DNA of 64,000 bases from Escherichia coli (GTDB taxonomy: Bacteria; Pseudomonadota; Gammaproteobacteria; Enterobacterales; Enterobacteriaceae), in assembly GCF_009931435.1 (NCBI RefSeq), contig NZ_CP043414.1; one strand, given 5' to 3'. The notes beneath the pieces are model-generated. The model had not been told where the DNA came from. It saw nothing but the letters and a program-made list of their open reading frames with translations, and searched no databases. Each line of letters begins with the position of its first letter. Position 1 is the stretch's first letter. The translations under genes were made by a program, and so were the position numbers. Shown here in pieces: positions 1,548-64,000 of this stretch.

Positions 1548-2882
1548 ATGAGTTCTGCCAAGAAGATCGGGCTATTTGCCTGTACCGGTGTTGTTGCCGG
1601 TAATATGATGGGGAGCGGCATTGCATTATTGCCTGCGAACCTTGCAAGTATCGGTGGTATTGCTATCTGGGGTTGGATTATCTCTATTATTGGTGCAATG
1701 TCGTTGGCTTATGTATATGCCCGACTGGCAACAAAAAACCCGCAACAAGGTGGCCCAATTGCTTATGCCGGAGAAATTTCTCCTGCATTTGGTTTTCAGA
1801 CAGGTGTTCTTTATTACCATGCTAACTGGATTGGTAACCTGGCGATTGGTATTACCGCTGTATCTTATCTTTCCACCTTCTTCCCTGTATTAAATGATCC
1901 TGTTCCGGCGGGTATCGCTTGTATTGCTATCGTCTGGGTATTTACCTTTGTAAATATGCTCGGCGGTACCTGGGTAAGCCGTTTAACCACTATTGGTCTG
2001 GTGCTGGTTCTTATTCCTGTAGTTATGACTGCTATTGTTGGCTGGCATTGGTTTGATGCTGCAACTTATGCTGCTAACTGGAATACCGCAGGTACTACTG
2101 ATGGTCATGCGATCATTAAAAGTATTCTGCTCTGCCTGTGGGCCTTCGTGGGTGTTGAATCCGCAGCGGTAAGTACTGGTATGGTTAAAAACCCGAAACG
2201 TACCGTTCCGCTGGCAACCATGCTGGGTACTGGTTTAGCAGGTATTGTTTACATCGCTGCGACTCAGGTGCTTTCCGGTATGTATCCGTCTTCTGTAATG
2301 GCAGGCTCCGGTGCTCCGTTTGCAATCAGTGCTTCTACTATCCTGGGTAACTGGGCTGCGCCGATGGTTTCTGCATTCACCGCTTTTGCGTGCCTGACTT
2401 CTCTGGGCTCCTGGATGATGCTGGTAGGTCAGGCAGGTGTGCGTGCCGCTAACGACGGTAACTTCCCGAAAGTTTATGGTGAAGTCGACAGCAACGGTAT
2501 TCCGAAAAAAGGTCTGCTGCTGGCTGCAGTGAAAATGACTGCCCTGATGATCCTCATCACTCTGATGAACTCTGCCGGTGGTAAAGCATCTGACCTGTTC
2601 GGTGAACTGACCGGTATCGCAGTACTGCTGACTATGCTGCCGTACTTCTACTCTTGCGTTGACCTGATTCGTTTTGAAGGCGTTAACATCCGCAACTTTG
2701 TCAGCCTGATCTGCTCTGTACTGGGTTGCGTGTTCTGCTTCATCGCGCTAATGGGCGCAAGCTCCTTCGAGCTGGCAGGTACCTTCATCGTCAGCCTGAT
2801 TATCCTGATGTTCTACGCTCGCAAAATGCACGAGCGCCAGAGCCACTCAATGGATAACCACACAGCGTCTAACGCACATTAA
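1548..2882 (+). CDS. cadB: Lysine/cadaverine antiporter
   Basis: 444-aa ORF, APC-family polytopic membrane protein matching CadB; immediately upstream of cadA. Confidence 0.95.
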   Translation: MSSAKKIGLFACTGVVAGNMMGSGIALLPANLASIGGIAIWGWIISIIGAMSLAYVYARLATKNPQQGGPIAYAGEISPAFGFQTGVLYYHANWIGNLAIGITAVSYLSTFFPVLNDPVPAGIACIAIVWVFTFVNMLGGTWVSRLTTIGLVLVLIPVVMTAIVGWHWFDAATYAANWNTAGTTDGHAIIKSILLCLWAFVGVESAAVSTGMVKNPKRTVPLATMLGTGLAGIVYIAATQVLSGMYPSSVMAGSGAPFAISASTILGNWAAPMVSAFTAFACLTSLGSWMMLVGQAGVRAANDGNFPKVYGEVDSNGIPKKGLLLAAVKMTALMILITLMNSAGGKASDLFGELTGIAVLLTMLPYFYSCVDLIRFEGVNIRNFVSLICSVLGCVFCFIALMGASSFELAGTFIVSLIILMFYARKMHERQSHSMDNHTASNAH

Positions 2883-2961
2883 TTAAAAGTATTTTCCGAG
2901 GCTCCTCCTTTCATTTTGTCCCATGTGTTGGGAGGGGCCTTTTTTACCTGGAGATATGACT

Positions 2962-5109
2962 ATGAACGTTATTGCAATATTGAATCACATGGGGGTTTAT
3001 TTTAAAGAAGAACCCATCCGTGAACTTCATCGCGCGCTTGAACGTCTGAACTTCCAGATTGTTTACCCGAATGACCGTGACGACTTATTAAAACTGATCG
3101 AAAACAATGCGCGTCTGTGCGGTGTTATTTTTGACTGGGATAAATATAATCTCGAGCTGTGCGAAGAAATTAGCAAAATGAACGAGAACCTGCCGTTGTA
3201 CGCGTTCGCTAATACGTATTCCACTCTCGATGTCAGCCTGAATGACCTGCGTTTACAGATTAGCTTCTTTGAATATGCGCTGGGTGCTGCTGATGATATT
3301 GCTAACAAGATCAAGCAGACCACTGACGAATATATCAACACTATTCTGCCTCCGCTGACCAAAGCACTGTTTAAATATGTTCGTGAAGGTAAATATACTT
3401 TCTGTACTCCTGGTCACATGGGCGGTACTGCATTCCAGAAAAGCCCGGTAGGTAGCCTGTTCTATGATTTCTTTGGTCCGAACACCATGAAATCTGATAT
3501 TTCCATTTCAGTATCTGAACTGGGTTCTCTGCTGGATCACAGTGGTCCACACAAAGAAGCAGAACAGTATATCGCTCGCGTCTTTAACGCAGACCGCAGC
3601 TACATGGTGACCAACGGTACTTCCACTGCGAACAAAATTGTTGGTATGTACTCTGCTCCGGCAGGCAGCACCATTCTGATTGACCGTAACTGCCACAAAT
3701 CGCTGACCCACCTGATGATGATGAGCGATGTTACGCCAATCTATTTCCGCCCGACCCGTAACGCTTACGGTATTCTTGGTGGTATCCCACAGAGTGAATT
3801 CCAGCACGCTACCATTGCTAAGCGCGTAAAAGAAACACCAAACGCGACCTGGCCGGTACATGCCGTAATTACTAACTCAACCTATGATGGTCTGCTGTAC
3901 AACACCGACTTCATCAAGAAAACACTGGATGTAAAATCCATCCACTTTGACTCCGCGTGGGTGCCTTACACCAACTTCTCACCGATTTACGAAGGTAAAT
4001 GCGGTATGAGCGGTGGCCGTGTAGAAGGGAAAGTGATTTACGAAACCCAGTCCACTCACAAACTGCTGGCGGCATTCTCTCAGGCTTCCATGATCCACGT
4101 TAAAGGTGACGTAAACGAAGAAACCTTTAACGAAGCCTACATGATGCACACCACCACCTCTCCGCACTACGGTATCGTGGCGTCCACTGAAACCGCTGCG
4201 GCGATGATGAAAGGTAATGCTGGTAAGCGTCTGATCAACGGTTCCATTGAACGTGCGATCAAGTTCCGTAAAGAGATCAAACGCCTGAGAACGGAATCTG
4301 ATGGCTGGTTCTTTGATGTATGGCAGCCGGATCATATCGATACCACTGAATGCTGGCCGCTGCGTTCTGACAGCTCCTGGCACGGCTTCAAGAACATCGA
4401 CAATGAGCACATGTATCTTGACCCGATTAAAGTTACCCTGCTGACCCCGGGGATGGAAAAAGACGGCACCATGAGCGACTTTGGTATTCCGGCCAGCATC
4501 GTGGCGAAATACCTCGACGAACATGGCATCGTTGTTGAGAAAACCGGCCCGTATAACCTGCTGTTCCTGTTCAGCATCGGTATTGATAAGACCAAAGCAT
4601 TGAGTCTGCTGCGTGCTCTGACTGACTTCAAACGTGCGTTCGACCTGAACCTGCGTGTGAAAAACATGCTGCCGTCTCTGTATCGTGAAGATCCTGAATT
4701 CTATGAAGATATGCGTATTCAGGAACTGGCTCAGAATATCCACAAACTGATTGTTCACCACAATCTGCCGGATCTGATGTATCGCGCATTTGAAGTTCTG
4801 CCGACAATGGTTATGACTCCGTATGCGGCGTTCCAGAAAGAGCTGCACGGTATGACCGAAGAAGTTTACCTCGACGAAATGGTAGGTCGTATTAACGCCA
4901 ATATGATCCTTCCGTATCCGCCGGGAGTTCCTCTGGTAATGCCGGGTGAAATGATCACCGAAGAAAGCCGTCCGGTGCTGGAGTTCCTGCAGATGCTGTG
5001 TGAAATCGGCGCTCACTATCCGGGCTTTGAAACCGATATTCACGGTGCATACCGTCAGGCTGATGGCCGCTATACCGTTAAGGTATTGAAAGAAGAAAGC
5101 AAAAAATAA
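2962..5109 (+). CDS. cadA: Inducible lysine decarboxylase
   Basis: ORF track starts at 2923, but the ATG at 2962 (MNVIAILNHMGVYF...) gives the 715-aa CadA; PLP fold-III decarboxylase motifs (STHKLL). Confidence 0.95.
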   Translation: MNVIAILNHMGVYFKEEPIRELHRALERLNFQIVYPNDRDDLLKLIENNARLCGVIFDWDKYNLELCEEISKMNENLPLYAFANTYSTLDVSLNDLRLQISFFEYALGAADDIANKIKQTTDEYINTILPPLTKALFKYVREGKYTFCTPGHMGGTAFQKSPVGSLFYDFFGPNTMKSDISISVSELGSLLDHSGPHKEAEQYIARVFNADRSYMVTNGTSTANKIVGMYSAPAGSTILIDRNCHKSLTHLMMMSDVTPIYFRPTRNAYGILGGIPQSEFQHATIAKRVKETPNATWPVHAVITNSTYDGLLYNTDFIKKTLDVKSIHFDSAWVPYTNFSPIYEGKCGMSGGRVEGKVIYETQSTHKLLAAFSQASMIHVKGDVNEETFNEAYMMHTTTSPHYGIVASTETAAAMMKGNAGKRLINGSIERAIKFRKEIKRLRTESDGWFFDVWQPDHIDTTECWPLRSDSSWHGFKNIDNEHMYLDPIKVTLLTPGMEKDGTMSDFGIPASIVAKYLDEHGIVVEKTGPYNLLFLFSIGIDKTKALSLLRALTDFKRAFDLNLRVKNMLPSLYREDPEFYEDMRIQELAQNIHKLIVHHNLPDLMYRAFEVLPTMVMTPYAAFQKELHGMTEEVYLDEMVGRINANMILPYPPGVPLVMPGEMITEESRPVLEFLQMLCEIGAHYPGFETDIHGAYRQADGRYTVKVLKEESKK

Positions 5110-5122
5110 TTAGCTCGTACAA

Positions 5123-5150
5123 GGGAAGTGGCTTGCCACTTCCCTTTTTT
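5123..5150 (+). terminator. Rho-independent terminator after cadA
   Basis: GC-rich inverted repeat gggaagtggc/gccacttccc followed by a T6 run. Confidence 0.6.
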
Positions 5151-5167
5151 GCTCATAAGGAGAACAC

Positions 5168-6625
5168 ATGAAAACACCCTCACAGCCGCGCGCGATATAC
5201 TATATCGTGGCGATCCAAATCTGGGAGTACTTCAGTTTTTACGGCATGCGTGCCTTACTCATTCTCTATCTCACCCATCAGCTTGGTTTTGATGATAACC
5301 ATGCCATCAGTCTGTTCAGCGCATATGCATCTCTGGTTTACGTTACCCCTATTCTCGGCGGCTGGCTTGCCGACCGCCTGCTCGGCAATCGTACTGCGGT
5401 AATTGCCGGCGCGCTGTTAATGACCCTTGGCCATGTAGTGCTGGGCATTGATACAAATTCAACCTTTAGCCTGTATCTGGCGCTGGCAATCATTATTTGT
5501 GGCTACGGTTTATTCAAATCAAACATCAGCTGTTTGCTTGGCGAGCTCTATGCCCCTGACGATCATCGACGTGATGGCGGTTTTTCGCTGCTGTATGCTG
5601 CGGGCAATATCGGTTCTATCGCAGCCCCCATCGCCTGCGGCCTGGCTGCTCAGTGGTATGGATGGCATGTTGGCTTTGCCCTTGCGGGTGGTGGCATGTT
5701 TATCGGTTTGTTGATTTTCTTAAGCGGTCATCGTCATTTCCAGTCCACGCGTAGTATGGATAAAAAAGCACTCACTCGAGTGAAATTTGCCTTACCGGTA
5801 TGGAGCTGGTTAGTGGTGATGCTCTGTTTAGCCCCAGTATTTTTTACCCTACTGCTGGAGAACGACTGGTCCGGATATTTGCTGGCGATCGTTTGCCTTA
5901 TTGCTGCACAAATCATTGCCCGCATGATGATCAAATTCCCCGAACACCGCCGTGCTCTTTGGCAAATTGTATTGTTGATGCTTGTCGGAACGTTGTTCTG
6001 GGTACTGGCACAACAGGGCGGCAGCACCATCAGCTTGTTTATCGATCGCTTTGTGAATCGTCAGGCATTCAATATTGAAGTGCCGACTGCGCTATTCCAG
6101 TCAGTGAATGCGATTGCAGTGATGCTCGCTGGGGTTGTTCTGGCCTGGCTGGCGTCGCCAGAAAGCCGCGGCAATTCAGCATTGCGCGTCTGGCTGAAGT
6201 TTGCCTTTGGCTTACTGCTGATGGCTTGTGGCTTTATGTTGCTGGCATTTGATGCCCGACATGCAGCGGCTGGCGGTCAAGCGTCAATGGGCGTGATGAT
6301 ATCCGGGCTGGCGCTAATGGGCTTTGCTGAACTCTTTATTGACCCGGTGGCGATTGCGCAAATCACGCGTCTGAAAATGTCTGGCGTATTAACCGGTATT
6401 TATATGCTGGCAACAGGCGCGGTCGCCAACTGGCTGGCAGGCGTCGTGGCACAGCAGACGACAGAGTCGCAAATTAGCGGTATGGCAATTGCAGCTTACC
6501 AGCGATTCTTTTCTCAGATGGGAGAGTGGACGTTGGCTTGTGTCGCGATCATCGTGGTATTGGCCTTTGCTGTCCGTTTTCTGTTTAGCACGCCGACGAA
6601 TATGATACAGGAGAGCAACGATTAA
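5168..6625 (+). CDS. dtpC: Proton-dependent dipeptide/tripeptide permease (POT family)
   Basis: 485-aa polytopic membrane ORF matching DtpC/YjdL; position between cadA and lysU as in K-12. Confidence 0.9.
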
Positions 6626-6861
6626 CTGTCGTAAAAACAATTGGTTATGAATAAATTAACTTTCAGTTTATCACACTAATAAATCGAGATTAATAAGTCA
6701 TTTAAACCATTTTTATGGTTATTTATTAGTGATATCAACTTGAGGTAAGCGTTAGTTTCGATAAGATAAACTGAGTTATTAATAGTCGAGGCAGATAATA
6801 CAGTGTACCGATCTGTCTCTTTATCTACGCTAAATTGAAAGCTGGATTTAGAGGAACCAAA

Positions 6862-8379
6862 ATGTCTGAACGAGAAACACGGGGAGCCAATGAGGCTATT
6901 GATTTTAACGATGAACTGAGAAATCGCCGCGAAAAACTGGCGGCACTACGTCAGCAAGGTGTGGCGTTTCCCAATGATTTTCGCCGCGACCATACCTCTG
7001 ACCAGTTGCACGAAGAGTTTGATGCGAAGGATAACCAGGAACTGGAATCCTTAAACATTGAAGTCTCGGTTGCTGGCCGAATGATGACCCGTCGTATCAT
7101 GGGGAAAGCCTCCTTTGTAACGTTGCAGGATGTCGGTGGCCGTATTCAACTGTACGTTGCACGAGATAGCCTGCCAGAAGGTGTTTATAACGATCAGTTT
7201 AAAAAATGGGACCTCGGCGACATTATCGGTGCCCGCGGTACGCTGTTTAAGACGCAAACTGGTGAGCTTTCCATTCACTGTACTGAGTTACGCCTGCTGA
7301 CTAAGGCACTGCGTCCATTGCCGGATAAATTCCATGGCTTACAGGATCAGGAAGTCCGTTATCGTCAACGTTATCTGGACCTCATCGCTAACGATAAATC
7401 CCGTCAAACGTTTGTTGTCCGTTCAAAAATTCTGGCCGCTATCCGTCAGTTCATGGTCGCTCGCGGTTTTATGGAAGTAGAAACCCCAATGATGCAGGTA
7501 ATTCCAGGTGGGGCATCTGCTCGCCCGTTTATTACCCATCATAATGCTCTGGATTTGGATATGTACCTGCGTATTGCGCCGGAGCTATATCTGAAACGTC
7601 TGGTTGTAGGTGGTTTTGAACGGGTATTCGAAATCAACCGTAACTTCCGTAATGAAGGTATTTCTGTTCGTCATAATCCTGAGTTCACGATGATGGAACT
7701 CTACATGGCGTATGCGGATTACCACGATTTGATTGAACTGACGGAATCACTGTTCCGCACTCTGGCACAAGAGGTACTGGGTACCACTAAAGTCACTTAT
7801 GGCGAGCATGTGTTTGATTTCGGCAAACCGTTTGAAAAACTCACCATGCGCGAAGCAATCAAAAAATATCGTCCAGAAACCAATATGGCGGACCTGGATA
7901 ATTTTGATGCTGCTAAAGCATTAGCTGAATCTATCGGAATTACGGTAGAGAAAAGCTGGGGGCTGGGACGCATTGTCACGGAGATCTTTGATGAAGTGGC
8001 AGAAGCACATCTGATTCAGCCAACCTTTATCACGGAATATCCGGCAGAAGTGTCACCGCTGGCGCGCCGTAATGATGTTAACCCGGAAATCACCGACCGT
8101 TTTGAATTCTTCATCGGTGGTCGTGAAATCGGTAATGGTTTTAGCGAATTAAACGACGCAGAAGATCAGGCGGAACGTTTCCAGGAACAGGTTAACGCTA
8201 AAGCTGCAGGTGACGACGAAGCCATGTTCTATGACGAAGATTACGTGACTGCGCTGGAATATGGTCTGCCGCCAACCGCGGGTCTGGGTATTGGTATCGA
8301 CCGAATGATTATGCTGTTTACTAACAGTCATACTATTCGCGACGTTATTCTCTTCCCGGCGATGCGTCCACAGAAATAA
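6862..8379 (+). CDS. lysU: Lysyl-tRNA synthetase, inducible isozyme
   Basis: 505 aa from the ATG at 6862 ([31 protein letters not shown]...); class II aaRS; the ORF-track start at 6835 is an upstream extension. Confidence 0.95.
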
Positions 8380-8390
8380 ATTTCATTTTA

Positions 8391-8425
8391 ACGAACGAAG
8401 CAGTCAGACGACTGCTTCGTTCGTC
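8391..8425. terminator. Hairpin between convergent lysU and ghoT, possibly bidirectional
   Basis: Inverted repeat aacgaacgaagcagtc / gactgcttcgttcgt with 4-nt loop; AT-rich tract on the ghoT-sense side. Confidence 0.5.
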
Positions 8426-8497
8426 GTTCCACAAATCCAGTTTCGAGGAGAGACGCTTCGTTTCAAGATAACCAGCGGGTCCACTCAACTACAGCTC

Positions 8498-8671
8498 CTA
8501 AAAGAGAGAAAAAAGTAATGCCACAGGCAGGCTCATTGGCCAGGTTATTCCGACCAGAAATGCACTAAGTAAACGAATATGTGTTTTCTCATGTGAGATA
8601 AACCAGATAATGACAAAGGATATGTTCACACCAATCACATAAAAAATTAATATTTTAGAGAATAGTGCCAT
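8498..8671 (-). CDS. ghoT: GhoT membrane-lytic toxin of the type V GhoT/GhoS toxin-antitoxin pair (57 aa; below the ORF-track length cutoff)
   Basis: Minus-strand translation reads MALFSKILIFYVIGVNISFVIIWFISHEKTHIRLLSAFLVGITWPMSLPVALLFSLF*, matching GhoT/YjdO; lies directly downstream of ghoS. Confidence 0.85.
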   Translation of the reverse strand: MALFSKILIFYVIGVNISFVIIWFISHEKTHIRLLSAFLVGITWPMSLPVALLFSLF

Positions 8672-8698
8672 TTTTTATGTTCTTCTTATCCTTCCTGA

Positions 8699-8995
8699 CT
8701 ACTTGTAAAACTGACGGAAATAGTCATCAACTGTCATAATGTTGAGGTCAAAATCAATATCCGGTAAGTCTAAGCATTTGAGCCTGATTAAATCTTCGAT
8801 TTCACTTGCGGCTAACGATGTCGTTATTGCGAAGGAATTTTCATTCAATTGTCGTGGTATCCCATATTCATCAGCCACGATAGAGGAGAAATTCATATCA
8901 TACATCAATGATCTTAACCTTAAGAACACTGAGGAATAAGATGATGGATAATCAAAAGAAACAACATAAGTATTGAACTTGTTTTTACCTTCCAT
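8699..8995 (-). CDS. ghoS: GhoS antitoxin (sequence-specific endoribonuclease) of the type V TA pair
   Basis: 98 aa from the ATG at 8995 (MEGKNKFNTYVVSFDYPSSY...) matching YjdK/GhoS; the ORF-track start at 9037 is an extension. Confidence 0.85.
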   Translation of the reverse strand: MEGKNKFNTYVVSFDYPSSYSSVFLRLRSLMYDMNFSSIVADEYGIPRQLNENSFAITTSLAASEIEDLIRLKCLDLPDIDFDLNIMTVDDYFRQFYK

Positions 8996-9223
8996 AATAT
9001 GACTCCTATCAATATTAAACGCTCTGGGGACGCACAACTTATTAACCCCGATCGATGATTCTCATATAGGAGATATTCTTTTTTTTTTGCTCAGTAAAGG
9101 GGATGACTTGGGACAAGAAAACGCTCTCTCTGACCATTCTTTGTGCATCCCCCTACCCTTCAGATTCTCTCCTGCATCACACCGCGGAGAGCATGAAAAA
9201 TATCGTGACTCTGTACTCTCCCA

Positions 9224-9496
9224 TCAACTGCGAATATCATCATACTCCCGCGTTTTATCAAATTCGTGTTTCGCAAATGGACATAATGGGATAATTTTTC
9301 GTTTTTCCCGACGCATTTTTTCCACGACTTTCGCAACCAGCTGTTTACCAATCCCTTGCCCTTTCAGGCTTTCATCGACATCGGTATGTTCGATAATCGC
9401 TAAATTCTCTCCGGTCGGCACAAAGACAATTTCAGCGATTTGCTTGCCCTGTTCGTCATTAATGTAAAATTTATTGTGGCCTTCGTGTATTTCCAT
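9224..9496 (-). CDS. yjdJ: Small GNAT-family acetyltransferase
   Basis: 90-aa ORF matching YjdJ; position between ghoS and yjdI. Confidence 0.8.
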
Positions 9497-9507
9497 TTTA
9501 CCCTCGC

Positions 9508-9738
9508 TTATTTATGACGGTATTTCAGCGCGCCGCTCGGGCACGTATCAATCACTTTAACCACAGTGGCAACGTCGACTTCATCCGGCATGATCCACGG
9601 CTTTCGTTTGAGATTAAATAACTTGCCGTTGCCACGTACGCAATTGCCAGAATGCTGACATATCGCAGTGTTGAAATAGACATCGATCTTTTCGCCGGTA
9701 TAACAGCGATAACCCCCGTCCAGTAGCGCCTGATCCAT
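9508..9738 (-). CDS. yjdI: Small cysteine-rich ferredoxin-like protein (DUF1271)
   Basis: 76-aa ORF with a Cys cluster (CQHSGNC...C) matching YjdI. Confidence 0.8.
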
Positions 9739-9918
9739 GACCTTCCCTCTCTCATCAGTATGGTTTTCACTATAAGCATAGCCCTGGAATCTTCATACAG
9801 CACTGGCAGTTTCCGTTGCCAGAGTCTCTTCCCCTATATAGCCAATCATTCTTACTCCCTTTGAATTACCCGCCTCATCAGAGATAATGCTTAAGAAATT
9901 TGTCACACAAGGAAGCTG

Positions 9919-14175: not shown

Positions 14176-14252
14176 ATGCACTTTGCGTGCCGCCCGTGAC
14201 TGCGCGGCACGCCATTTTCGAATAACAAATACAGAGTTACAGGCTGGAAGCT

Positions 14253-15899
14253 ATGTCAAACAAACCCTTTATCTACCAGGCACCTTTCCCGATGGGGAAA
14301 GACAATACCGAATACTATCTACTCACGTCCGATTACGTTAGCGTTGCCGACTTCGACGGCGAAACCATCCTGAAAGTGGAACCAGAAGCCCTGACCTTGC
14401 TGGCGCAGCAAGCCTTCCACGACGCTTCTTTCATGCTCCGCCCGGCACACCAGAAACAGGTTGCTGCAATTCTTCACGATCCAGAAGCCAGCGAAAACGA
14501 CAAGTACGTGGCGCTGCAATTCTTAAGAAACTCAGAAATCGCCGCCAAAGGCGTGCTGCCAACCTGCCAGGATACTGGCACCGCGATCATCGTCGGTAAA
14601 AAAGGTCAGCGCGTGTGGACCGGAGGCGGCGATGAAGAAGCGCTGTCGAAAGGTGTCTATAACACCTATATCGAAGATAACCTGCGTTACTCACAAAACG
14701 CGCCGCTGGACATGTACAAAGAGGTCAACACCGGCACGAACCTGCCTGCGCAAATCGACCTGTACGCGGTAGATGGCGACGAATACAAATTCCTCTGCGT
14801 CGCCAAAGGCGGTGGCTCTGCCAATAAAACGTATCTCTACCAGGAAACCAAAGCTTTGCTGACTCCCGGCAAACTGAAAAACTTCCTCGTCGAGAAAATG
14901 CGTACACTCGGTACTGCAGCCTGCCCGCCGTACCATATCGCGTTTGTGATTGGCGGTACGTCTGCGGAAACCAACCTGAAAACCGTCAAGTTAGCAAGCG
15001 CTCACTATTACGATGAACTGCCGACCGAAGGGAACGAACATGGTCAGGCGTTCCGAGATGTCCAGCTGGAACAGGAACTGCTGGAAGAGGCCCAGAAACT
15101 CGGCCTTGGCGCGCAGTTTGGCGGTAAATACTTCGCGCACGACATCCGCGTGATCCGTCTGCCACGTCACGGCGCATCCTGCCCGGTAGGTATGGGCGTC
15201 TCCTGCTCCGCTGACCGTAACATTAAAGCGAAAATCAACCGCGAAGGTATCTGGATCGAAAAACTGGAACACAATCCAGGCCAGTACATTCCACAAGAAC
15301 TGCGTCAGGCCGGTGAAGGCGAAGCGGTGAAAGTCGACCTTAACCGCCCGATGAAAGAGATCCTCGCCCAGCTTTCGCAATACCCGGTATCCACCCGCTT
15401 GTCGCTCACCGGCACTATTATCGTGGGTCGCGATATTGCACACGCCAAACTGAAAGAGCTGATTGACGCCGGTAAAGAACTGCCGCAGTACATCAAAGAT
15501 CACCCGATCTACTACGCGGGTCCGGCGAAAACGCCTGCCGGTTATCCATCAGGTTCACTTGGCCCAACCACCGCAGGTCGTATGGACTCCTACGTGGATC
15601 TGCTGCAATCCCACGGCGGCAGCATGATCATGCTGGCGAAAGGTAACCGCAGTCAGCAGGTTACCGACGCGTGTCATAAACACGGCGGCTTCTACCTCGG
15701 TAGTATCGGCGGCCCGGCGGCGGTACTGGCGCAGCAGAGCATCAAGCATCTGGAATGCGTCGCTTATCCGGAGCTGGGTATGGAAGCTATCTGGAAAATC
15801 GAAGTAGAAGATTTCCCGGCGTTTATCCTGGTCGATGACAAAGGCAACGACTTCTTCCAGCAAATCGTCAACAAACAGTGCGCGAACTGCACTAAGTAA
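14253..15899 (+). CDS. fumB: Class I fumarate hydratase, anaerobic isozyme
   Basis: 548-aa ORF matching FumB; dcuB-fumB arrangement as in E. coli. Confidence 0.95.
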
Positions 15900-16021
15900 C
15901 CTCTTCGGCCCAGCGCCTGGCAGCATGCTGCCAGGTGATCCCCCTGGGCCACCTCTTTTGCGATTGTAATTTCACGCTTGCTGGTGAATAGTCAGTATTT
16001 TTCCTGACTTGCGAACTCACC

Positions 16022-16672
16022 ATGACCCGCACACTCAAGCCGTTAATTCTTAACACCGGCGCACTGGCGCTAACGTTAATCCTGATTTATACCGGCATTT
16101 CGGCCAATGACAAACTCACCTGGCTGATGGAAGTGACACCGGTGATTATTGTCGTGCCGCTACTGCTTGCCACCGCCAGACGTTACCCGTTAACGCCGCT
16201 GCTCTATACGCTCATTTTCTTTCATGCCATCATCCTGATGGTCGGCGGGCAATACACCTACGCGAAAGTCCCCGTTGGTTTTGAGGTGCAGGAATGGCTG
16301 GGGTTGAGCCGTAATCCGTATGACAAGCTGGGGCATTTTTTCCAGGGGCTGGTGCCTGCACTGGTGGCGCGAGAAATTCTCGTTCGCGGGATGTACGTGC
16401 ACGGACGTAAAATGGTGGCGTTTCTGGTCTGCTGCGTGGCGCTGGCGATAAGCGCGATGTATGAATTAATCGAGTGGTGGGCAGCGCTGGCAATGGGTCA
16501 GGGAGCGGATGATTTTCTCGGCACCCAGGGCGACCAGTGGGACACGCAATCCGATATGTTCTGCGCGCTGCTTGGCGCATTAACGACGGTGATATTCCTC
16601 GCTCGCTTTCATTGCCGCCAGCTACGGCGCTATGGCTTAATCACCAGAGCGCCGGAAGCGATTACCTCTTAA
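16022..16672 (+). CDS. yjdF: Inner-membrane protein YjdF; the 3' end may be altered at a deletion junction
   Basis: 216-aa membrane ORF matching YjdF over most of its length; its stop shares nucleotides with the melA stop on the opposite strand. Confidence 0.8.
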   Translation: MTRTLKPLILNTGALALTLILIYTGISANDKLTWLMEVTPVIIVVPLLLATARRYPLTPLLYTLIFFHAIILMVGGQYTYAKVPVGFEVQEWLGLSRNPYDKLGHFFQGLVPALVAREILVRGMYVHGRKMVAFLVCCVALAISAMYELIEWWAALAMGQGADDFLGTQGDQWDTQSDMFCALLGALTTVIFLARFHCRQLRRYGLITRAPEAITS

Positions 16673-18024
16673 CGGTGCAACCAGCCTGGCAGCCAGTCGC
16701 CGTGGGCGGCAATCAGGTCGTCAACAAGAGCATATATTTCGTCAATGCCCAGCACGGCGGCAGTATGCGGGTCCATCATCGCGGCGTGGTAAACACGGTC
16801 GCGATTTTCTGTGAGAATGGCTTCCGTCAGCAGCGTCTGTACGTTGATGTTGGTTTGCATCAGGGCGGCCAGATGCGAAGGTAGCGTACCGACTTTGGTC
16901 GGCTGAATGCCATTAGCATCAACTAAACAGGCCACTTCCACGCAACATCCTTGTGGCAGGTTATCAATCAAACCATCGTTACGGACGTTGCCATAAATCA
17001 CACTCGGCTCGCCAGTCCAGATAGCGTTCATGATTGTGCTGGCATATTCCCGTGACGGTTTAATATCAATCCGGGAGGCGTTCTTATACTCCTCCAGCTC
17101 TTTATGCCAGTTCGCCAGCTGCTCGACGCAGCGTTTCGGGTACTCATCCAGCGGTACTTTATAACGCTCAATCAAATCCTCACGACCTGGCTTAATAAAC
17201 CACGGCGTGTACTCAGCAAAATGTTCTGACGATTCCGTGACGAAGTAGCCCAGCTTTTTGAACATTTCGTAGCGCACAATATTCTGGCAGCGAGTATTGC
17301 CATGAATATTCGGCTTCGGTGCCTGCCCTGCTTCATAAGCCGCCAGCAGTTCCGGGTAGAGATTCACGTAACTGCCGTCGGCGGTTTTGCGCTCCAGTTC
17401 CAGGTAAAACGCCATATGGTTGATACCTGCGCAACGGTAACGCAGCGTAGCCGGGTCGATATTGAGGTCACGCGCCAGCTCTTCCGCCGTTCCCTGCACC
17501 GAATGGCACAGCCCTACCTGTTTGATATGCGGATAGCGGGCATACATCGCCCAGGTATTCATCGCCATTGGGTTAACATAGTTGAGCATGGTGGCATCGG
17601 GGCAGACTTCCGTCATGTCCTCGCAAATTTGCCACAGGTGCGGAATGGTACGCAGCGCGCGCATAATACCGCCCGGCCCCAGCGTATCGGCAATGGTTTG
17701 TTCCAGACCGTGGCGCTTACAGACCTCGAAATCAGTCACCGTGCAAGGTTCATAACCGCCAATCTGAAATGCCACCACGACAAAATCGGCATCCTGTAAG
17801 GCTTCTTTCTGTTGGGTGTGGCAGGTGATTTTGCCGCTGGCCCCTGCTGAATCCATCAGCTTGCGCACCACAATATGCGACTCTTCCAGGCGGGTGGGAT
17901 CAATGTCCATCAGGGCAATATGCGCCGTTTTCAGCGCCTCGCGATGGAACACATCACCAAGAATATTTTTAACGAAAATCGTCGAACCAGCGCCGATAAA
18001 TGTAATTTTGGGTGCAGACATCAT
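16669..18024 (-). CDS. melA: Alpha-galactosidase (melibiase), NAD/Mn-dependent GH4
   Basis: 451-aa ORF (MMSAPKITFIGAGSTIF ... LPGWLHR) matching MelA; divergent from melR. Confidence 0.95.
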   Translation of the reverse strand: MMSAPKITFIGAGSTIFVKNILGDVFHREALKTAHIALMDIDPTRLEESHIVVRKLMDSAGASGKITCHTQQKEALQDADFVVVAFQIGGYEPCTVTDFEVCKRHGLEQTIADTLGPGGIMRALRTIPHLWQICEDMTEVCPDATMLNYVNPMAMNTWAMYARYPHIKQVGLCHSVQGTAEELARDLNIDPATLRYRCAGINHMAFYLELERKTADGSYVNLYPELLAAYEAGQAPKPNIHGNTRCQNIVRYEMFKKLGYFVTESSEHFAEYTPWFIKPGREDLIERYKVPLDEYPKRCVEQLANWHKELEEYKNASRIDIKPSREYASTIMNAIWTGEPSVIYGNVRNDGLIDNLPQGCCVEVACLVDANGIQPTKVGTLPSHLAALMQTNINVQTLLTEAILTENRDRVYHAAMMDPHTAAVLGIDEIYALVDDLIAAHGDWLPGWLHR

Positions 18025-18306
18025 GCAGATCTCCTGGCTTGCTTGAATAACTTCATCATGGCAGGCGAATCTGCAGAAAACCTCCGGCTTCCAGGTTGAG
18101 CATTCCCATAAACTCAGATCCTGCGTGAAGTGTCAGTAAATCTGAGTTTATGGGAATAAATTACCTGAAAAGCAGAGTTTTCGGCCTCATGGTACTCGGA
18201 TGATCCCTTCGCCCCTCTGGCAAGAGGACGAAAACCGTGCTCCCACTCGCAGTCATCCTCCCTCACTCCTGCCATAATTCTGATATTCCAGGAAAGAGAG
18301 TCATCC
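18025..18306. promoter_or_regulatory. Divergent melR/melA promoter region (MelR and CRP sites expected)
   Basis: 282-bp intergenic region between divergently oriented melA and melR; sites not individually resolved. Confidence 0.5.
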
Positions 18307-19215
18307 ATGAATACAGATACGTTTATGTGCAGCAGCGACGAAAAACAGACCCGCAGCCCGCTGTCGCTGTATTCGGAATACCAGCGGATGGAGATTGAGT
18401 TTCGCGCACCGCATATCATGCCCACCAGCCACTGGCATGGTCAGGTCGAAGTGAATGTGCCTTTCGATGGCGATGTGGAATACCTGATCAACAATGAAAA
18501 AGTGAGTATCAATCAGGGACATATCACGCTGTTCTGGGCCTGTACACCGCACCAACTAACAGATACCGGAACCTGTCAGAGCATGGCGATTTTTAATCTG
18601 CCGATGCATCTGTTTCTCTCCTGGCCGCTGGATAAAGACCTGATTAACCACGTCACTCACGGCATGGTGATCAAATCACTGGCGACACAGCAACTTAGCC
18701 CGTTTGAAGTGCGCCGCTGGCAGCAGGAATTGAACAGTCCGAACGAGCAAATTCGCCAGCTCGCCATTGATGAAATTGGCCTGATGCTCAAGCGATTTAG
18801 CCTCTCTGGCTGGGAACCGATTCTGGTCAATAAAACCTCGCGCACACACAAAAACAGCGTCTCGCGCCATGCGCAATTTTATGTCAGCCAGATGCTGGGC
18901 TTTATTGCCGAAAACTATGATCAGGCGCTGACCATCAACGATGTGGCTGAGCACGTCAAACTTAACGCCAACTATGCAATGGGGATATTCCAGCGGGTCA
19001 TGCAATTGACGATGAAACAGTACATTACCGCGATGCGCATCAACCACGTTCGCGCGTTACTGAGCGATACCGATAAAAGTATTCTCGATATTGCCCTGAC
19101 GGCAGGCTTTCGTTCGAGTAGCCGTTTTTACAGCACGTTCGGCAAATATGTCGGCATGTCACCGCAACAATACCGCAAACTTAGCCAACAGCGCCGCCAG
19201 ACGTTTCCCGGCTAA
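18307..19215 (+). CDS. melR: AraC-family melibiose operon activator
   Basis: 302-aa ORF with C-terminal AraC-type HTH matching MelR. Confidence 0.95.
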   Translation: MNTDTFMCSSDEKQTRSPLSLYSEYQRMEIEFRAPHIMPTSHWHGQVEVNVPFDGDVEYLINNEKVSINQGHITLFWACTPHQLTDTGTCQSMAIFNLPMHLFLSWPLDKDLINHVTHGMVIKSLATQQLSPFEVRRWQQELNSPNEQIRQLAIDEIGLMLKRFSLSGWEPILVNKTSRTHKNSVSRHAQFYVSQMLGFIAENYDQALTINDVAEHVKLNANYAMGIFQRVMQLTMKQYITAMRINHVRALLSDTDKSILDIALTAGFRSSSRFYSTFGKYVGMSPQQYRKLSQQRRQTFPG

Positions 19216-19413
19216 AGACGATATCAGTATCAGCCAAAAAAATAGTTTAGCCGTCGATAATAAGCAGTGAAAATAAATCAAAATAATCACATAACATATT
19301 GTTTATAAAAATGAATATATAAAAAATGTTTGTTTTTCATGCGCTTTACAGCCCGAAAAGGCCGGAAGATACTTGCCCGCAACGAAGATTCCTTCATAAC
19401 CGGGTAAGCAATG

Positions 19414-21681
19414 ATGAAAGTATTAATTGTTGAAAGCGAGTTTCTCCATCAGGACACCTGGGTCGGTAACGCCGTTGAGCGTCTGGCAGATGCTTTAAGC
19501 CAGCAAAATGTTACCGTGATTAAATCCACCTCCTTTGATGATGGCTTTGCCATTCTCTCTTCAAACGAAGCCATTGACTGCCTGATGTTCAGCTATCAAA
19601 TGGAACATCCGGACGAACATCAAAACGTCAGACAATTGATCGGTAAGCTTCATGAGCGCCAACAAAACGTGCCGGTCTTCCTGTTGGGCGATCGGGAAAA
19701 AGCCCTCGCCGCAATAGACCGAGATCTGCTGGAGCTTGTCGATGAATTCGCCTGGATTCTGGAAGATACCGCCGACTTTATCGCCGGACGCGCCGTTGCC
19801 GCAATGACCCGCTACCGCCAGCAGCTGTTGCCGCCACTGTTCAGCGCGCTGATGAAATATAGCGACATCCATGAATATTCCTGGGCAGCGCCAGGCCACC
19901 AGGGCGGCGTTGGCTTTACCAAAACACCCGCCGGACGTTTTTACCATGACTACTATGGTGAAAATCTGTTCCGCACCGACATGGGCATCGAACGGACTTC
20001 CCTCGGTTCTTTGCTTGACCATACTGGCGCATTTGGCGAAAGCGAAAAATATGCCGCACGCGTATTTGGTGCCGATCGCTCCTGGTCGGTAGTCGTCGGT
20101 ACTTCCGGCTCTAACCGTACCATCATGCAGGCTTGCATGACCGATAACGATGTAGTGGTCGTTGACCGTAACTGCCATAAATCCATCGAACAAGGCTTGA
20201 TGCTGACAGGCGCGAAACCGGTCTACATGGTGCCAAGCCGCAACCGCTACGGCATTATCGGGCCAATTTATCCGCAGGAAATGCAACCTGAAACCTTGCA
20301 GAAGAAAATCAGTGAAAGCCCGCTGACCAAAGACAAAGCCGGGCAAAAACCGTCTTACTGCGTGGTAACCAACTGCACCTATGACGGCGTGTGTTATAAC
20401 GCTAAAGAAGCGCAGGATCTGCTGGAAAAAACTTCCGATCGTCTGCACTTTGACGAAGCCTGGTACGGCTATGCACGTTTCAACCCGATCTATGCCGATC
20501 ACTATGCCATGCGCGGTGAACCTGGCGATCACAACGGTCCTACCGTTTTCGCCACCCACTCAACCCACAAACTGCTGAATGCGCTGTCACAGGCCTCTTA
20601 CATTCATGTGCGTGAAGGTCGTGGGGCGATTAACTTCTCCCGCTTCAACCAGGCATACATGATGCATGCCACCACCTCCCCGCTGTATGCCATCTGTGCA
20701 TCTAACGACGTGGCGGTGTCGATGATGGACGGCAACAGCGGCCTGTCACTGACCCAGGAAGTGATCGACGAAGCGGTTGATTTCCGTCAAGCGATGGCAC
20801 GGCTGTATAAAGAGTTCACCCATGACGGTAGCTGGTTCTTCAAACCGTGGAACAAAGAAGTGGTCACCGATCCACAAACCGGCAAAACCTACGACTTTGC
20901 TGACGCGCCAACCAAACTGCTGACCACCGTTCAGGACTGCTGGGTAATGCATCCGGGCGAAAGCTGGCACGGCTTCAAAGATATTCCGGATAACTGGAGT
21001 ATGCTCGACCCAATTAAAGTCAGCATTCTCGCACCGGGAATGGGTGAAGATGGTGAACTGGAAGAAACCGGTGTTCCGGCGGCGCTGGTCACTGCCTGGC
21101 TTGGTCGCCACGGCATTGTGCCTACCCGCACCACTGACTTCCAGATTATGTTCCTGTTCTCTATGGGCGTAACCCGTGGGAAATGGGGAACTCTGGTTAA
21201 CACCCTTTGCTCCTTCAAACGCCACTACGACGCCAACACACCGCTGGCGCAGGTGATGCCGGAACTTGTTGAACAATATCCTGACACTTACGCGAATATG
21301 GGGATTCACGATCTGGGTGACACCATGTTTGCCTGGCTAAAAGAAAATAACCCTGGCGCACGGTTGAACGAAGCCTATTCCGGCCTGCCGGTGGCGGAAA
21401 TCACCCCGCGTGAAGCGTACAACGCAATTGTCGATAACAATGTCGAACTGGTATCCATTGAAAATCTGCCTGGACGCATCGCGGCAAACTCAGTTATCCC
21501 GTATCCGCCAGGAATCCCGATGCTACTGTCTGGTGAAAACTTCGGCGATAAAAACAGTCCACAGGTAAGTTATTTACGCTCCCTGCAATCCTGGGACCAT
21601 CATTTCCCTGGATTTGAACACGAAACTGAAGGGACTGAAATTATTGACGGTATTTACCACGTCATGTGTGTGAAAGCGTAA
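19414..21681 (+). CDS. adiA: Biodegradative (acid-inducible) arginine decarboxylase
   Basis: 755 aa from the ATG at 19414 (MKVLIVESEFLHQDTWVGNAVERLADALSQ...); paralogous to CadA. Confidence 0.95.
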   Translation: MKVLIVESEFLHQDTWVGNAVERLADALSQQNVTVIKSTSFDDGFAILSSNEAIDCLMFSYQMEHPDEHQNVRQLIGKLHERQQNVPVFLLGDREKALAAIDRDLLELVDEFAWILEDTADFIAGRAVAAMTRYRQQLLPPLFSALMKYSDIHEYSWAAPGHQGGVGFTKTPAGRFYHDYYGENLFRTDMGIERTSLGSLLDHTGAFGESEKYAARVFGADRSWSVVVGTSGSNRTIMQACMTDNDVVVVDRNCHKSIEQGLMLTGAKPVYMVPSRNRYGIIGPIYPQEMQPETLQKKISESPLTKDKAGQKPSYCVVTNCTYDGVCYNAKEAQDLLEKTSDRLHFDEAWYGYARFNPIYADHYAMRGEPGDHNGPTVFATHSTHKLLNALSQASYIHVREGRGAINFSRFNQAYMMHATTSPLYAICASNDVAVSMMDGNSGLSLTQEVIDEAVDFRQAMARLYKEFTHDGSWFFKPWNKEVVTDPQTGKTYDFADAPTKLLTTVQDCWVMHPGESWHGFKDIPDNWSMLDPIKVSILAPGMGEDGELEETGVPAALVTAWLGRHGIVPTRTTDFQIMFLFSMGVTRGKWGTLVNTLCSFKRHYDANTPLAQVMPELVEQYPDTYANMGIHDLGDTMFAWLKENNPGARLNEAYSGLPVAEITPREAYNAIVDNNVELVSIENLPGRIAANSVIPYPPGIPMLLSGENFGDKNSPQVSYLRSLQSWDHHFPGFEHETEGTEIIDGIYHVMCVKA

Positions 21682-22004
21682 CCACTATTCCGCTGAAGGC
21701 GTAATTGTTAAATAACATTACGCCGCCTGGCTTGAGGCCTTTTTAGTATGGCAACGTTTTCATAAAAATTGCTGCAAACAAAAATGTCATACTTTTTGCG
21801 CGGTCCCACCCCGCGCTTTTTTTCGCCTGTTATTTATCCTGTAAAAAAATATGTACATGAGAAATTACTATAAAAATTTGTAATATTAGTAAAACTCGTT
21901 ATTTTTATGCATGTTTATATTCATCATACAATTATATAACCATTTCCCGGTATCGCTTTGCTTTAGCGAGAACTGGTCTTTTATTCGCACTCAGGAGTAC
22001 ATGT

Positions 22005-22766
22005 ATGAGGATTTGCAGCGACCAACCTTGTATTGTTTTATTGACTGAAAAAGATGTCTGGATAAGGGTGAATGGGAAAGAACCTATTAGCCTTAAAGCT
22101 AACCATATGGCGTTATTAAATTGTGAAAATAATATTATCGACGTCTCCTCTCTTAATAACACTTTGGTTGCTCATATTAGTCACGACATCATCAAAGATT
22201 ACCTCCGGTTTCTGAATAAAGATCTCTCGCAAATACCAGTATGGCAACGTAGTGCTACGCCCATCCTCACCCTGCCATGCCTGACGCCAGACGTCTTTCG
22301 CGTTGCCGCGCAACATAGCATGATGCCCGCTGAAACTGAGTCAGAAAAAGAACGAACACGTGCATTATTATTCACAGTGCTATCCCGTTTTCTCGACAGT
22401 AAAAAATTCCTTTCATTAATGATGTATATGTTACGTAATTGTGTAAGTGACAGCGTTTATCAAATTATTGAAAGCGATATCCACAAAGACTGGAATCTTA
22501 GTATGGTAGCCAGTTGTTTATGTCTTAGCCCAAGCCTGTTAAAGAAAAAGCTGAAAAGCGAAAACACCAGTTATAGCCAAATAATCACCACCTGCCGCAT
22601 GCGTTATGCCGTCAATGAATTAATGATGGACGGTAAAAATATCTCTCAGGTCTCACAGTCGTGTGGCTACAACAGTACGTCGTACTTTATTTCTGTCTTT
22701 AAAGACTTCTACGGTATGACGCCTCTGCATTATGTTAGTCAGCACAGAGAGCGCACTGTCGCCTGA
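22005..22766 (+). CDS. adiY: AraC-family regulator of the arginine-dependent acid-resistance system
   Basis: 253-aa ORF with C-terminal AraC HTH, low GC, between adiA and adiC. Confidence 0.9.
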   Translation: MRICSDQPCIVLLTEKDVWIRVNGKEPISLKANHMALLNCENNIIDVSSLNNTLVAHISHDIIKDYLRFLNKDLSQIPVWQRSATPILTLPCLTPDVFRVAAQHSMMPAETESEKERTRALLFTVLSRFLDSKKFLSLMMYMLRNCVSDSVYQIIESDIHKDWNLSMVASCLCLSPSLLKKKLKSENTSYSQIITTCRMRYAVNELMMDGKNISQVSQSCGYNSTSYFISVFKDFYGMTPLHYVSQHRERTVA

Positions 22767-22902
22767 TTTTTAACCTTAACGAAGAGCTATATTAATAACG
22801 GCATCAGCGATAACCCGGTCGATAATAATTCAACTATCGAATGCAGGCGTATGATATGACGTAATTTATTGTCACGAAGCTCGCCTTCGCAGGAGTTTAA
22901 TT

Positions 22903-24240
22903 ATGTCTTCGGATGCTGATGCTCACAAAGTGGGCTTAATCCCCGTCACCCTGATGGTGTCGGGGAATATTATGGGGTCAGGTGTTTTTCTGTTACCTGC
23001 AAACCTGGCCTCCACTGGCGGGATTGCCATTTATGGATGGTTGGTGACGATTATCGGTGCGCTGGGGCTCTCGATGGTATACGCCAAAATGTCGTTCCTC
23101 GACCCAAGTCCTGGTGGTTCTTACGCTTACGCCCGCCGCTGCTTTGGCCCGTTTCTCGGTTATCAAACCAACGTCCTCTACTGGCTGGCCTGCTGGATCG
23201 GCAATATCGCCATGGTGGTCATTGGCGTAGGATATTTAAGTTACTTCTTCCCGATTCTGAAAGATCCACTGGTATTAACCATCACCTGCGTCGTGGTGCT
23301 GTGGATCTTCGTCCTGCTGAACATTGTCGGTCCGAAAATGATCACCCGCGTGCAGGCCGTTGCCACCGTGCTGGCGCTGATCCCCATCGTCGGGATTGCC
23401 GTATTTGGCTGGTTCTGGTTCCGTGGTGAAACCTATATGGCGGCATGGAACGTCAGCGGCCTGGGCACCTTCGGCGCGATTCAAAGTACCCTTAACGTTA
23501 CGCTGTGGTCGTTCATCGGTGTGGAAAGTGCCTCCGTTGCCGCAGGTGTGGTGAAAAACCCGAAACGCAACGTCCCTATCGCCACCATTGGTGGGGTATT
23601 GATTGCCGCCGTTTGCTATGTACTTTCTACCACCGCGATTATGGGGATGATCCCTAATGCCGCACTGCGCGTTTCTGCTTCGCCATTCGGTGATGCCGCA
23701 CGGATGGCGCTGGGTGACACCGCCGGGGCCATTGTTTCTTTCTGCGCAGCTGCGGGTTGCTTAGGTTCACTGGGCGGCTGGACATTGCTGGCGGGTCAAA
23801 CGGCGAAAGCCGCTGCCGATGACGGGCTGTTCCCACCGATTTTTGCTCGTGTAAACAAAGCGGGTACGCCAGTGGCGGGGCTGATTATCGTCGGAATTTT
23901 GATGACCATCTTCCAGCTCAGCAGCATTTCGCCAAACGCGACCAAAGAATTCGGTCTGGTTTCTTCCGTGTCGGTCATCTTTACACTGGTGCCATATCTT
24001 TACACCTGTGCGGCGTTACTGCTGCTCGGCCACGGCCACTTTGGTAAAGCACGCCCTGCATATCTGGCTGTTACTACCATTGCCTTCCTCTACTGCATCT
24101 GGGCCGTGGTGGGGTCCGGGGCGAAAGAGGTTATGTGGTCATTTGTCACCCTGATGGTCATCACCGCCATGTATGCGCTGAATTACAACCGGCTGCATAA
24201 AAACCCGTATCCCTTAGATGCACCAATAAGCAAAGATTAA
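22903..24240 (+). CDS. adiC: Arginine/agmatine antiporter
   Basis: 445-aa APC-family membrane ORF matching AdiC. Confidence 0.95.
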
Positions 24241-24263: not shown

Positions 24264-24300
24264 AAAGCCAACCTTAAGAACTTAAGGTTGGCTTAATTTT
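24264..24300 (+). terminator. Rho-independent terminator after adiC
   Basis: Inverted repeat agccaaccttaag / cttaaggttggct followed by aatttt. Confidence 0.6.

Positions 24301-63070: not shown

Positions 63071-64000
<930 letters not shown>

Follow-up and report, generated by a model that had tools for sequence, protein, structure and literature searches.

Gene content and intactness of the region

Two acid-resistance systems of Escherichia coli, Cad (cadC, cadB, cadA) and Adi (adiA, adiY, adiC), lie close together in the DNA analyzed here, a stretch of 64,000 nucleotides from contig NZ_CP043414.1, hereafter called the window. The span considered covers positions 1548-24240 (22,693 bp), from the ATG of cadB at 1548 to the final base of the stop codon of adiC at 24240. 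An earlier note, made from the letters of the window, had placed exactly these limits around two paralogous modules, each pairing a fold-III pyridoxal phosphate (PLP) decarboxylase with an APC antiporter and a dedicated regulator, and interleaved with dcuSR-dcuB-fumB and lysU. Gene names were taken from the RefSeq annotation of one 99.2%-identical genome and from K-12. The gene order is cadC, cadB, cadA, dtpC, lysU, ghoT, ghoS, yjdJ, yjdI, dcuS, dcuR, dcuB, fumB, yjdF, melA, melR, adiA, adiY, adiC, and in the annotation of both reference genomes eptA-basRS follows next after adiC. The description as a whole was confirmed. Annotation, domain content and comparison with K-12 bore out the gene identities and functions, and RefSeq annotation and K-12 synteny bore out the interleaving; the paralogy of enzyme and antiporter also stood, and the fold type and the paralogy of the regulators did not. 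Both dedicated regulators are present, although cadC lies upstream of the span and is cut by the start of the window. The claim that these genes account for most of the window's first third holds as well, since by arithmetic from the coordinates cadC, cadBA, lysU, dcuSR, dcuB, fumB and adiA cover approximately 63% of the first 21.3 kb.

The region aligns collinearly with MG1655 at 97.5% DNA identity, in reverse orientation to K-12 4.335-4.362 Mb, with the loss of melB as the sole structural difference. Each of the 14 larger genes of the span is an uninterrupted frame of full length, and 13 of the 14 products are 98.4-100% identical to their MG1655 counterparts, the exception being yjdF (see below). 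Neither a frameshift nor a nonsense mutation was found in the five core genes (cadB, cadA, adiA, adiY and adiC), the 13 genes lying between them are likewise intact, and no evidence contradicting the gene identities was found. Terminator-like hairpins occur 3' of cadC, cadA, adiA and adiC. Scans for sigma-70 promoters in both modules returned no more matches than in shuffled sequence, and no promoter is claimed; at Rfam gathering thresholds, positions 1548-24240 gave no match to a known RNA family. The region almost certainly holds two complete textbook systems, Cad (AR4) and Adi (AR3), juxtaposed in Escherichia, whose decarboxylases and antiporters are ancient paralogues.

The Cad module

The visible 3' part of cadC (positions 3-1184, + strand) is a frame that is open from the start of the window and comprises 393 codons (approximately 120-512), of which 388 specify the same residue as in K-12. 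Codons 1 to approximately 119, including the winged-helix DNA-binding domain, lie upstream of the window and are present in the 99.2%-identical genome. The visible part contains a CadC_C1 domain (E=2.5e-63) and, although truncated, scores 510 bits against the NF007540 equivalog model (cut-off 400). The disulfide pair C208 and C272 is present, as are D198, D200, H240, K242, E468 and D471, which include the acidic residues of the sensor, together with one hydrophobic segment, FWVWFFFLLSLGICVALVAF, as expected for a single transmembrane helix. CadC is a membrane-integrated, ToxR-like sensor of pH and lysine and the activator of cadBA. A pathoadaptive nonsense mutation in cadC, suggested by an open reading frame of 346 amino acids at 144-1184, was considered and rejected; the frame is open to the window start and the apparent truncation is an artifact of the window edge.

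The spacer between cadC and cadB contains, as read from the sequence, an AT-rich palindromic 17-mer, TAAACATTGAATGTTTA, at 1327-1343 (+). The 17-mer in the corresponding position of K-12 is TAAACATTAAATGTTTA, the sole difference being the base at the center (G here, A in K-12). A quasi-palindromic 17-mer has been described for Cad1 (PMC5430869), and the 17-mer found here is the core of Cad1, a site for CadC binding in the cadBA promoter. Its 8+1+8 palindrome had been missed by the repeat search, the arms falling under the length threshold.

The lysine:cadaverine antiporter gene cadB (1548-2882, +) encodes a member of the APC superfamily with 441 of 444 residues identical to K-12. CadB has an AA_permease_2 domain (E=4e-40), scores 916 bits against the NF007754 equivalog model (cut-off 585), passes the broader TIGR00905 subfamily model (484 vs 409) and matches solved AdiC structures with E-values of 1e-96 to 1e-99. 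It contains Y73, Y89, Y90, E204, Y235, D303 and Y423, functional residues known from CadB mutagenesis.

The gene for inducible lysine decarboxylase, cadA (ldcI; 2962-5109, +), encodes 715 amino acids, of which 712 are identical to K-12. The three Pfam domains OKR_DC_1_N (3e-31), OKR_DC_1 (2e-200) and OKR_DC_1_C (5e-47) are present, and the lysine decarboxylase subfamily model NF011929 is matched at 1627 bits (cut-off 1056). The protein aligns end to end with the LdcI structure PDB 3N75, and matches the AdiA structure 2VYC at 1e-143. K367 lies in the motif QSTHK, and the PLP-site residues T220, S221, H245, D330, W333, S364 and H366, listed in PMC9036910, are intact. A longer CadA of 728 amino acids beginning at an in-frame ATG at 2923, 39 nt upstream, was rejected; the RefSeq and K-12 start is at 2962, and a length of 715 amino acids fits 3N75.

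The Adi module

The biodegradative arginine decarboxylase gene adiA (19414-21681, +) encodes a protein identical to that of K-12 at 752 of 755 positions. AdiA has the same three Pfam domains as CadA, OKR_DC_1_N (2e-25), OKR_DC_1 (9e-192) and OKR_DC_1_C (4e-43), matches the solved AdiA structure 2VYC and scores 1703 bits against the NF011603 equivalog model (cut-off 1167); K386 lies in the motif HSTHK.

The 3' untranslated region (3'UTR) of adiA (21682-21823, +) ends in a U-rich stretch and a terminator hairpin at 21798-21816 followed by a T-run, and folds at -39.5 kcal/mol (z=-2.6). It is near-identical to K-12, with a few substitutions and with the terminator module kept. AdiZ is an RNase E-processed, Hfq-dependent small RNA (sRNA) characterized in Salmonella (PMC12746102), and the adiA 3'UTR here is the region homologous to this 3'UTR-derived sRNA. 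It corresponds to the Escherichia-Shigella cluster of AdiZ sequences, which is described as lacking the SgrS-like seed directed at ptsG (PMC12746102). No Rfam family matched the adiA 3'UTR.

The next gene, adiY (22005-22766, +), encodes an AraC/XylS-family activator of adiA and adiC with 252 of 253 residues identical to K-12. AdiY matches HTH_AraC (4.7e-17) and HTH_18 (9.7e-15), in keeping with a double helix-turn-helix at the C-terminus, and the pH-sensing residues His34 and His60 are present. No AdiY-specific NCBIfam model was matched, the best model being GadX, far under its cut-off. The arginine:agmatine antiporter gene adiC (22903-24240, +) encodes an APC superfamily protein identical to that of K-12 at all 445 positions. 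AdiC scores 892 bits against the NF007929 equivalog model (cut-off 574) and fails the broader TIGR00905 subfamily model (353 vs 409). Residues N22, S26, Y93, W202, E208, W293 and S357, known from AdiC structures to bind substrate or act in gating, are present. A terminator-like 13-bp palindromic hairpin follows adiC at 24265-24294 and reads on both strands.

Fold of the decarboxylases

The earlier note's label of fold-III PLP decarboxylase was wrong for both enzymes. Neither the TIM-barrel domain Orn_Arg_deC_N nor the beta-sandwich domain Orn_DAP_Arg_deC was matched in CadA or AdiA by Pfam at E<=1e-3. The only extra Pfam match of AdiA was to Pyridoxal_deC, which is another fold-type-I family. 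In the literature, LdcI/CadA, LdcC, AdiA, SpeC and SpeF belong to the aspartate-aminotransferase (AAT)-fold superfamily (PLP fold type I) with a CheY-like wing domain (PMC6257575, PMC9036910). Basic amino-acid decarboxylases also form a second superfamily, that of the AR fold (alanine racemase), which is unrelated to the first (PMC6257575). CadA and AdiA are wing-domain AAT-fold Lys/Arg/Orn decarboxylases. Because the fold-III domains are missing from both proteins and the literature places them in the AAT class, the fold-III label belongs instead to the family of SpeA and eukaryotic-type ornithine decarboxylase, whose members are PLP-dependent and share the same substrates (PMC6257575) but have a fold unrelated to that of CadA and AdiA.

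Paralogy of enzymes and antiporters

The decarboxylases CadA and AdiA align across all three domains with 267 identities in 740 positions (36%, E=3e-163), and the antiporters CadB and AdiC align end to end with 172 identities in 447 (38%, E=1e-109). Exactly two copies of each of these families were found in the 64-kb window with tblastn. Homology between the regulators CadC and AdiY was rejected, as their best match had E=0.09 over 24 residues and they belong to different regulator families. A tblastn search of the window with AdiY found no paralogue at E<=0.01; the window also encodes MelR, an AraC-family protein. Gene order differs as well, with cadB-cadA in one operon and adiA-adiY-adiC having their own spacers. 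Judged from these comparisons, paralogy extends to two components of the three, enzyme and transporter, and not to the regulator, and the earlier description of paralogous modules is to be narrowed to those two.

Origin and juxtaposition of the two modules

At the DNA level, similarity between the modules is confined to five blastn patches of 22-44 nt, and the duplication is therefore ancient. The window proteins were compared with their K-12 paralogues. Among the decarboxylases, CadA and AdiA are 36% identical to each other and 31-32.5% identical to SpeF and SpeC, and CadA is 69% identical to LdcC. Among the antiporters, identity in this comparison is 40% between CadB and AdiC, 29-33% to PotE and 19.6-20.9% to GadC, and a neighbor-joining tree rooted on GadC gave the topology ((CadB,AdiC),PotE). 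The published phylogeny of the decarboxylases unites LdcI/C and Adc as an "LAdc" clade that is sister to Odc (PMC6257575). The congruent topologies in the two families fit the duplication of an ancestral pair of decarboxylase and antiporter. From this we infer co-duplication, and the data are consistent with an ancestral decarboxylase-antiporter pair having been duplicated and with regulators having been recruited independently afterwards.

Chromosomal proximity was assessed by scanning one genome per species for relatives of CadA, which gave 79 loci with flanks of up to 10 kb that were searched with the window proteins; flanks of this length report on the absence of the bridging dcu genes and not on where other genera carry adi. 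The genes dcuS-dcuR-dcuB were found 3' of cadA only in E. coli and Escherichia sp. MOD1-EC7003 among the 79 loci, and in no other genus did an orthologue of adiA, adiY or adiC lie less than 10 kb from cadA. In E. albertii, cadCBA-dtpC-lysU is kept, and nothing matching ghoS, yjdI, dcuS or dcuR was found in the remaining 6.7 kb or so of the locus (approximately 13000-19724 in locus coordinates), so that the junction between cad and dcu differs even within the genus. The taxonomic distributions of Cad and Adi differ (PMC8989999), and Adc genes are prone to horizontal gene transfer (HGT) and have no conserved genomic context (PMC6257575). A literature search on Salmonella STM2559/STM4296 for a separation of cad and adi found nothing. 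The 14-kb separation of the modules in the window thus appears to be a juxtaposition within Escherichia and no relic of a duplication.

Several points weigh against this account of origin and position. Co-duplication draws on only three paralogous lineages; the gene order is inverted, with the antiporter first in cad and the decarboxylase first in adi and speF-potE; the published tree leaves the relationships among LdcI/C, Adc and LdcA unresolved (PMC6257575); and AdiC scores 400 bits on the model for the histidine-histamine antiporter against 372 on the CadB model. The lineage-specific nature of the proximity is likewise seen through the lack of dcu genes in the 10-kb flanks and not through the positions of adi. 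An alternative is that the pairs were assembled independently, CadA and AdiA, and CadB and AdiC, each having diverged within its own family and been paired later, in which case the modules would not be paralogous units. The contrast between cadB-cadA and adiA-adiY-adiC, the unrelated regulators, the second-best NCBIfam model of AdiC (histidine-histamine antiporter, not CadB) and the shaping of the Adc subfamily by HGT (PMC6257575) all suit such a history. It is nevertheless the less probable account, at about one chance in four, for the pairs are reciprocally closest in both families (36% vs 31-32.5% and 40% vs 29-33%), the LAdc clade is sister to Odc in the published tree (PMC6257575), and the second-best model of CadB is AdiC.

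The proximity could also be read as a trace of one module having arisen from the other by local segmental duplication in this neighborhood, with the 23-kb span as its relic. The modules do share a strand, with 14 kb between them, and are homologous in two of their three components. Protein identity of 36-40% with DNA similarity essentially gone, some 45 other Enterobacterales cadCBA-dtpC loci lacking dcuSR or adi genes within 10 kb, the E. albertii locus already without ghoS, yjdI and dcuS after lysU, the differing distributions of Cad and Adi (PMC8989999) and the HGT-prone nature of adc (PMC6257575) have already largely refuted this idea, which is now scarcely credible. It is also very improbable, if a shade less so, that cad-dtpC-lysU-dcu-fumB-adi forms a selected, co-regulated "acid/anaerobiosis island" in which closeness has a functional role, as by shared silencing of a chromosomal domain or by coordinated, mutually exclusive expression of Cad and Adi. 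Such an island would accommodate the acid induction of yjdL, yjdI and yjdJ alongside cadBA (PMC2270276), the mutually exclusive activation of Cad and Adi in single cells (PMC8989999), and the AT-rich character of adiY and the regulatory spacers (40-42% GC in the 1-kb bins at 1-2, 12-13 and 22-23 kb). However, the cross-talk between Cad and Adi has been attributed to intracellular pH set by CadA activity, with no second CadC site (PMC8989999), the arrangement is not conserved outside Escherichia, and the cluster is broken up by mel and ghoST, for which no connection with acid resistance is evident. Juxtaposition within Escherichia of two anciently duplicated pairs is thus preferred. The 23-kb proximity in the heading of the earlier note is real, and is uninformative on how the systems arose.

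The cadCBA-dtpC block

Downstream of cadA lies dtpC (yjdL; 5168-6625, +), which encodes a proton-coupled dipeptide permease identical to that of K-12 at 477 of 485 positions. An intrinsic-terminator hairpin of 11 bp with a T-run (5121-5146, +) follows cadA and ends 22 nt before the dtpC ATG, a gap too short to hold a separate promoter. Across Enterobacterales, cadC-cadB-cadA-dtpC is a conserved four-gene block. Among the 61 cadBA loci with enough flank, dtpC lies no more than 400 nt from cadA in 45, and where CadA is at least 86% identical this is true of 45 out of 47. The cadA-dtpC spacer is mostly 54-92 nt long, with a few insert-bearing exceptions, and in single-sequence folds from nearly every genus examined it consists of a GC-rich hairpin and a T-run, followed by an AGGAG Shine-Dalgarno sequence and the dtpC ATG. 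In an alignment of 23 Enterobacterales spacers the stem has 12 pairs, four of them with compensatory changes and almost none broken. An alignment of 36 spacers gave no consensus structure because Hafnia, Edwardsiella and Enterobacillus were misaligned. The next gene, lysU, lies 3' of dtpC only in Escherichia, Klebsiella, Raoultella, Buttiauxella, Pseudescherichia and a few unclassified or Enterobacter-labeled relatives.

In a published array, yjdL was acid-induced together with cadA and cadB (PMC2270276). DtpC prefers X-Lys dipeptides, with lysine at the C-terminus, which is unusual among peptide transporters (PMC9309889, PMC3478282). Neither of these two DtpC papers mentions cad, although the link may be noted elsewhere. 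We tentatively propose, at somewhat less than even probability, that dtpC is a fourth working part of the Cad module. Its transcription would come from partial read-through of the cadA hairpin or from a promoter in the 3' end of cadA, and the X-Lys dipeptides that it imports would be hydrolyzed to supply lysine to CadA when free lysine is scarce.

Some cad loci outside Escherichia carry additional decarboxylase genes. In eight Serratia loci and one from Citrobacter freundii, another gene resembling cadA, its product 68-75% identical to CadA, lies approximately 3-3.7 kb into the locus, a few kb upstream of cadC and on the strand of cadCBA. This gene is possibly a paralogue of the ldcC type joined to the cad locus. 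In Edwardsiella anguillarum and E. ictaluri, one locus each (approximately 6500-12100 in locus coordinates) contains a CadA-like gene, 82-83% identical, with no cadB upstream, preceded by an AdiA-like gene (30-32%) and an AdiC-like gene (34-36%). The latter two are possibly a pair of the speF/potE type, which would make this a three-gene decarboxylase cluster. Up to three cadA-like loci occur per Edwardsiella genome.

Neighboring genes and the loss of melB

The genes between the modules are closely similar to those of K-12. The inducible lysyl-tRNA synthetase gene lysU (6862-8379, +) specifies 503 of 505 residues identical to K-12 LysU. On the opposite strand at 8498-9738 (-) are ghoT and ghoS, a type V toxin-antitoxin pair, and yjdJ and yjdI, identified by tblastn and annotation; all four products align over their full length with the K-12 proteins at 97.8-100% identity, YjdJ being the lowest at 97.8%. 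The C4-dicarboxylate two-component system is encoded by dcuS (9919-11550, +; 542 of 543 identical) and dcuR (11547-12266, +; 239 of 239). Next are dcuB for the anaerobic C4-dicarboxylate carrier (12835-14175, +; 446 of 446) and fumB for the anaerobic fumarase (14253-15899, +; 546 of 548). They are followed by yjdF (16022-16672, +) and, by annotation, melA (16669-18024, -) and melR (18307-19215, +).

In K-12 the melibiose permease gene melB lies between melA and yjdF. It is absent here, 1,668 nt having been replaced by 23 nt at 16646-16668, and no MelB-like sequence was matched by tblastn anywhere in the 64-kb window. The C-terminus of YjdF is altered, with 216 amino acids compared to 209 in K-12, and the last 4 nt of its gene are shared with the end of melA; only 201 of the 216 residues agree with K-12 because the 3' end was altered by the melB deletion. 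The identical junction was found in 1,264 of 5,413 complete E. coli genomes, which makes the loss of melB a common lineage polymorphism.

The window among E. coli genomes

A megablast search with positions 1-25000 gave matches in 5,425 of 5,426 complete E. coli genomes. At least 80% of this query was found in one place and collinear in 4,595 of the 5,426, the best being 99.2-99.3% identical. By segment, the best identity to complete E. coli genomes was 99.3% for 1-25000, 98.1% for 25001-50000 and 98.5% for 50001-64000. The middle segment is more variable, and for 1,248 records the best identity there was merely 90-95%. The lineage of the window appears to have no near-identical representative among the 5,426 complete genomes.

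Three Rfam matches above the gathering score lie outside the span. They are the sRNA STnc630 at 27722-27887 (-), the nucleoid-associated naRNA4 (CssrE) at 33574-33650 (+), and a SECIS_2 element at 53880-53934 (+) that is presumably in fdhF.

Proposed mechanism and significance

The mechanism is taken from the literature (PMC12826058, PMC8989999, PMC5430869), and the present analysis contributes the identity, intactness, homology and synteny of the genes. In each system a cytoplasmic PLP-dependent decarboxylase would consume one proton in converting an amino acid to an amine and CO2, with CadA converting lysine to cadaverine and AdiA converting arginine to agmatine. The APC antiporter, CadB or AdiC, would then exchange the external amino acid for the internal, more alkaline amine, and decarboxylation together with antiport would raise both the cytoplasmic and the external pH. 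CadC would sense a periplasmic pH of approximately 5.8 together with lysine and bind Cad1 and Cad2 upstream of cadBA. The cytoplasmic AdiY would be protonated at His34 and His60 at an external pH of approximately 4.4 and would then activate adiA and adiC separately, this pH-sensing mechanism being that described in PMC12826058. Expression of Cad and Adi is heterogeneous and occurs largely in different cells (PMC8989999). Given the 98-100% identity of the products to characterized K-12 proteins, acid-induced expression and protection at low pH would be expected of the window systems as well.

The findings on Cad and Adi were already known, and are correct but ordinary; both systems are textbook E. 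coli, and the earlier note had rightly treated them as known biology. The analysis upholds the annotation of the window's first third, corrects the fold label of the decarboxylases to AAT fold/fold type I and limits paralogy to enzyme and transporter. The chromosomal proximity of the modules appears to be a feature of Escherichia and is no evidence on the origin of the systems. A modest by-product is that the conserved cadCBA-dtpC block and its hairpin suggest a testable arm of Cad for lysine-dipeptide supply.

Comparison with known systems

The closest known systems are those of K-12 itself. The K-12 Cad system (cadC-cadBA; AR4; b4131-b4133) has the same genes in the same order, spacing and strand, and the core of the Cad1 17-mer, the cadA terminator and the PLP-site residues are kept in the window; the difference is the center base of the Cad1 palindrome. 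The K-12 Adi system (adiA-adiY-adiC; AR3; b4115-b4117) has the same His34 and His60 in AdiY and the same 3'UTR terminator, the difference being the few substitutions in the 3'UTR.

A third paralogous pair drawn from the same two families is SpeF-PotE (AR5), an inducible ornithine decarboxylase with a putrescine-ornithine antiporter, in which the decarboxylase gene is upstream, as in adi. This pair lies elsewhere on the chromosome, is 31% identical to CadA and AdiA and 29-33% identical to CadB and AdiC, and has a leader peptide, speFL, and no dedicated transcription factor. The glutamate-dependent system GadB/GadC (AR2) follows the same logic of proton-consuming decarboxylation and antiport, and GadC is also of the APC superfamily. 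GadB is a decarboxylase of another family (group II, Pyridoxal_deC) that lacks the wing domain, and GadC is just 19.6-20.9% identical to CadB and AdiC, so that GadB/GadC is an analogous and not a paralogous module.

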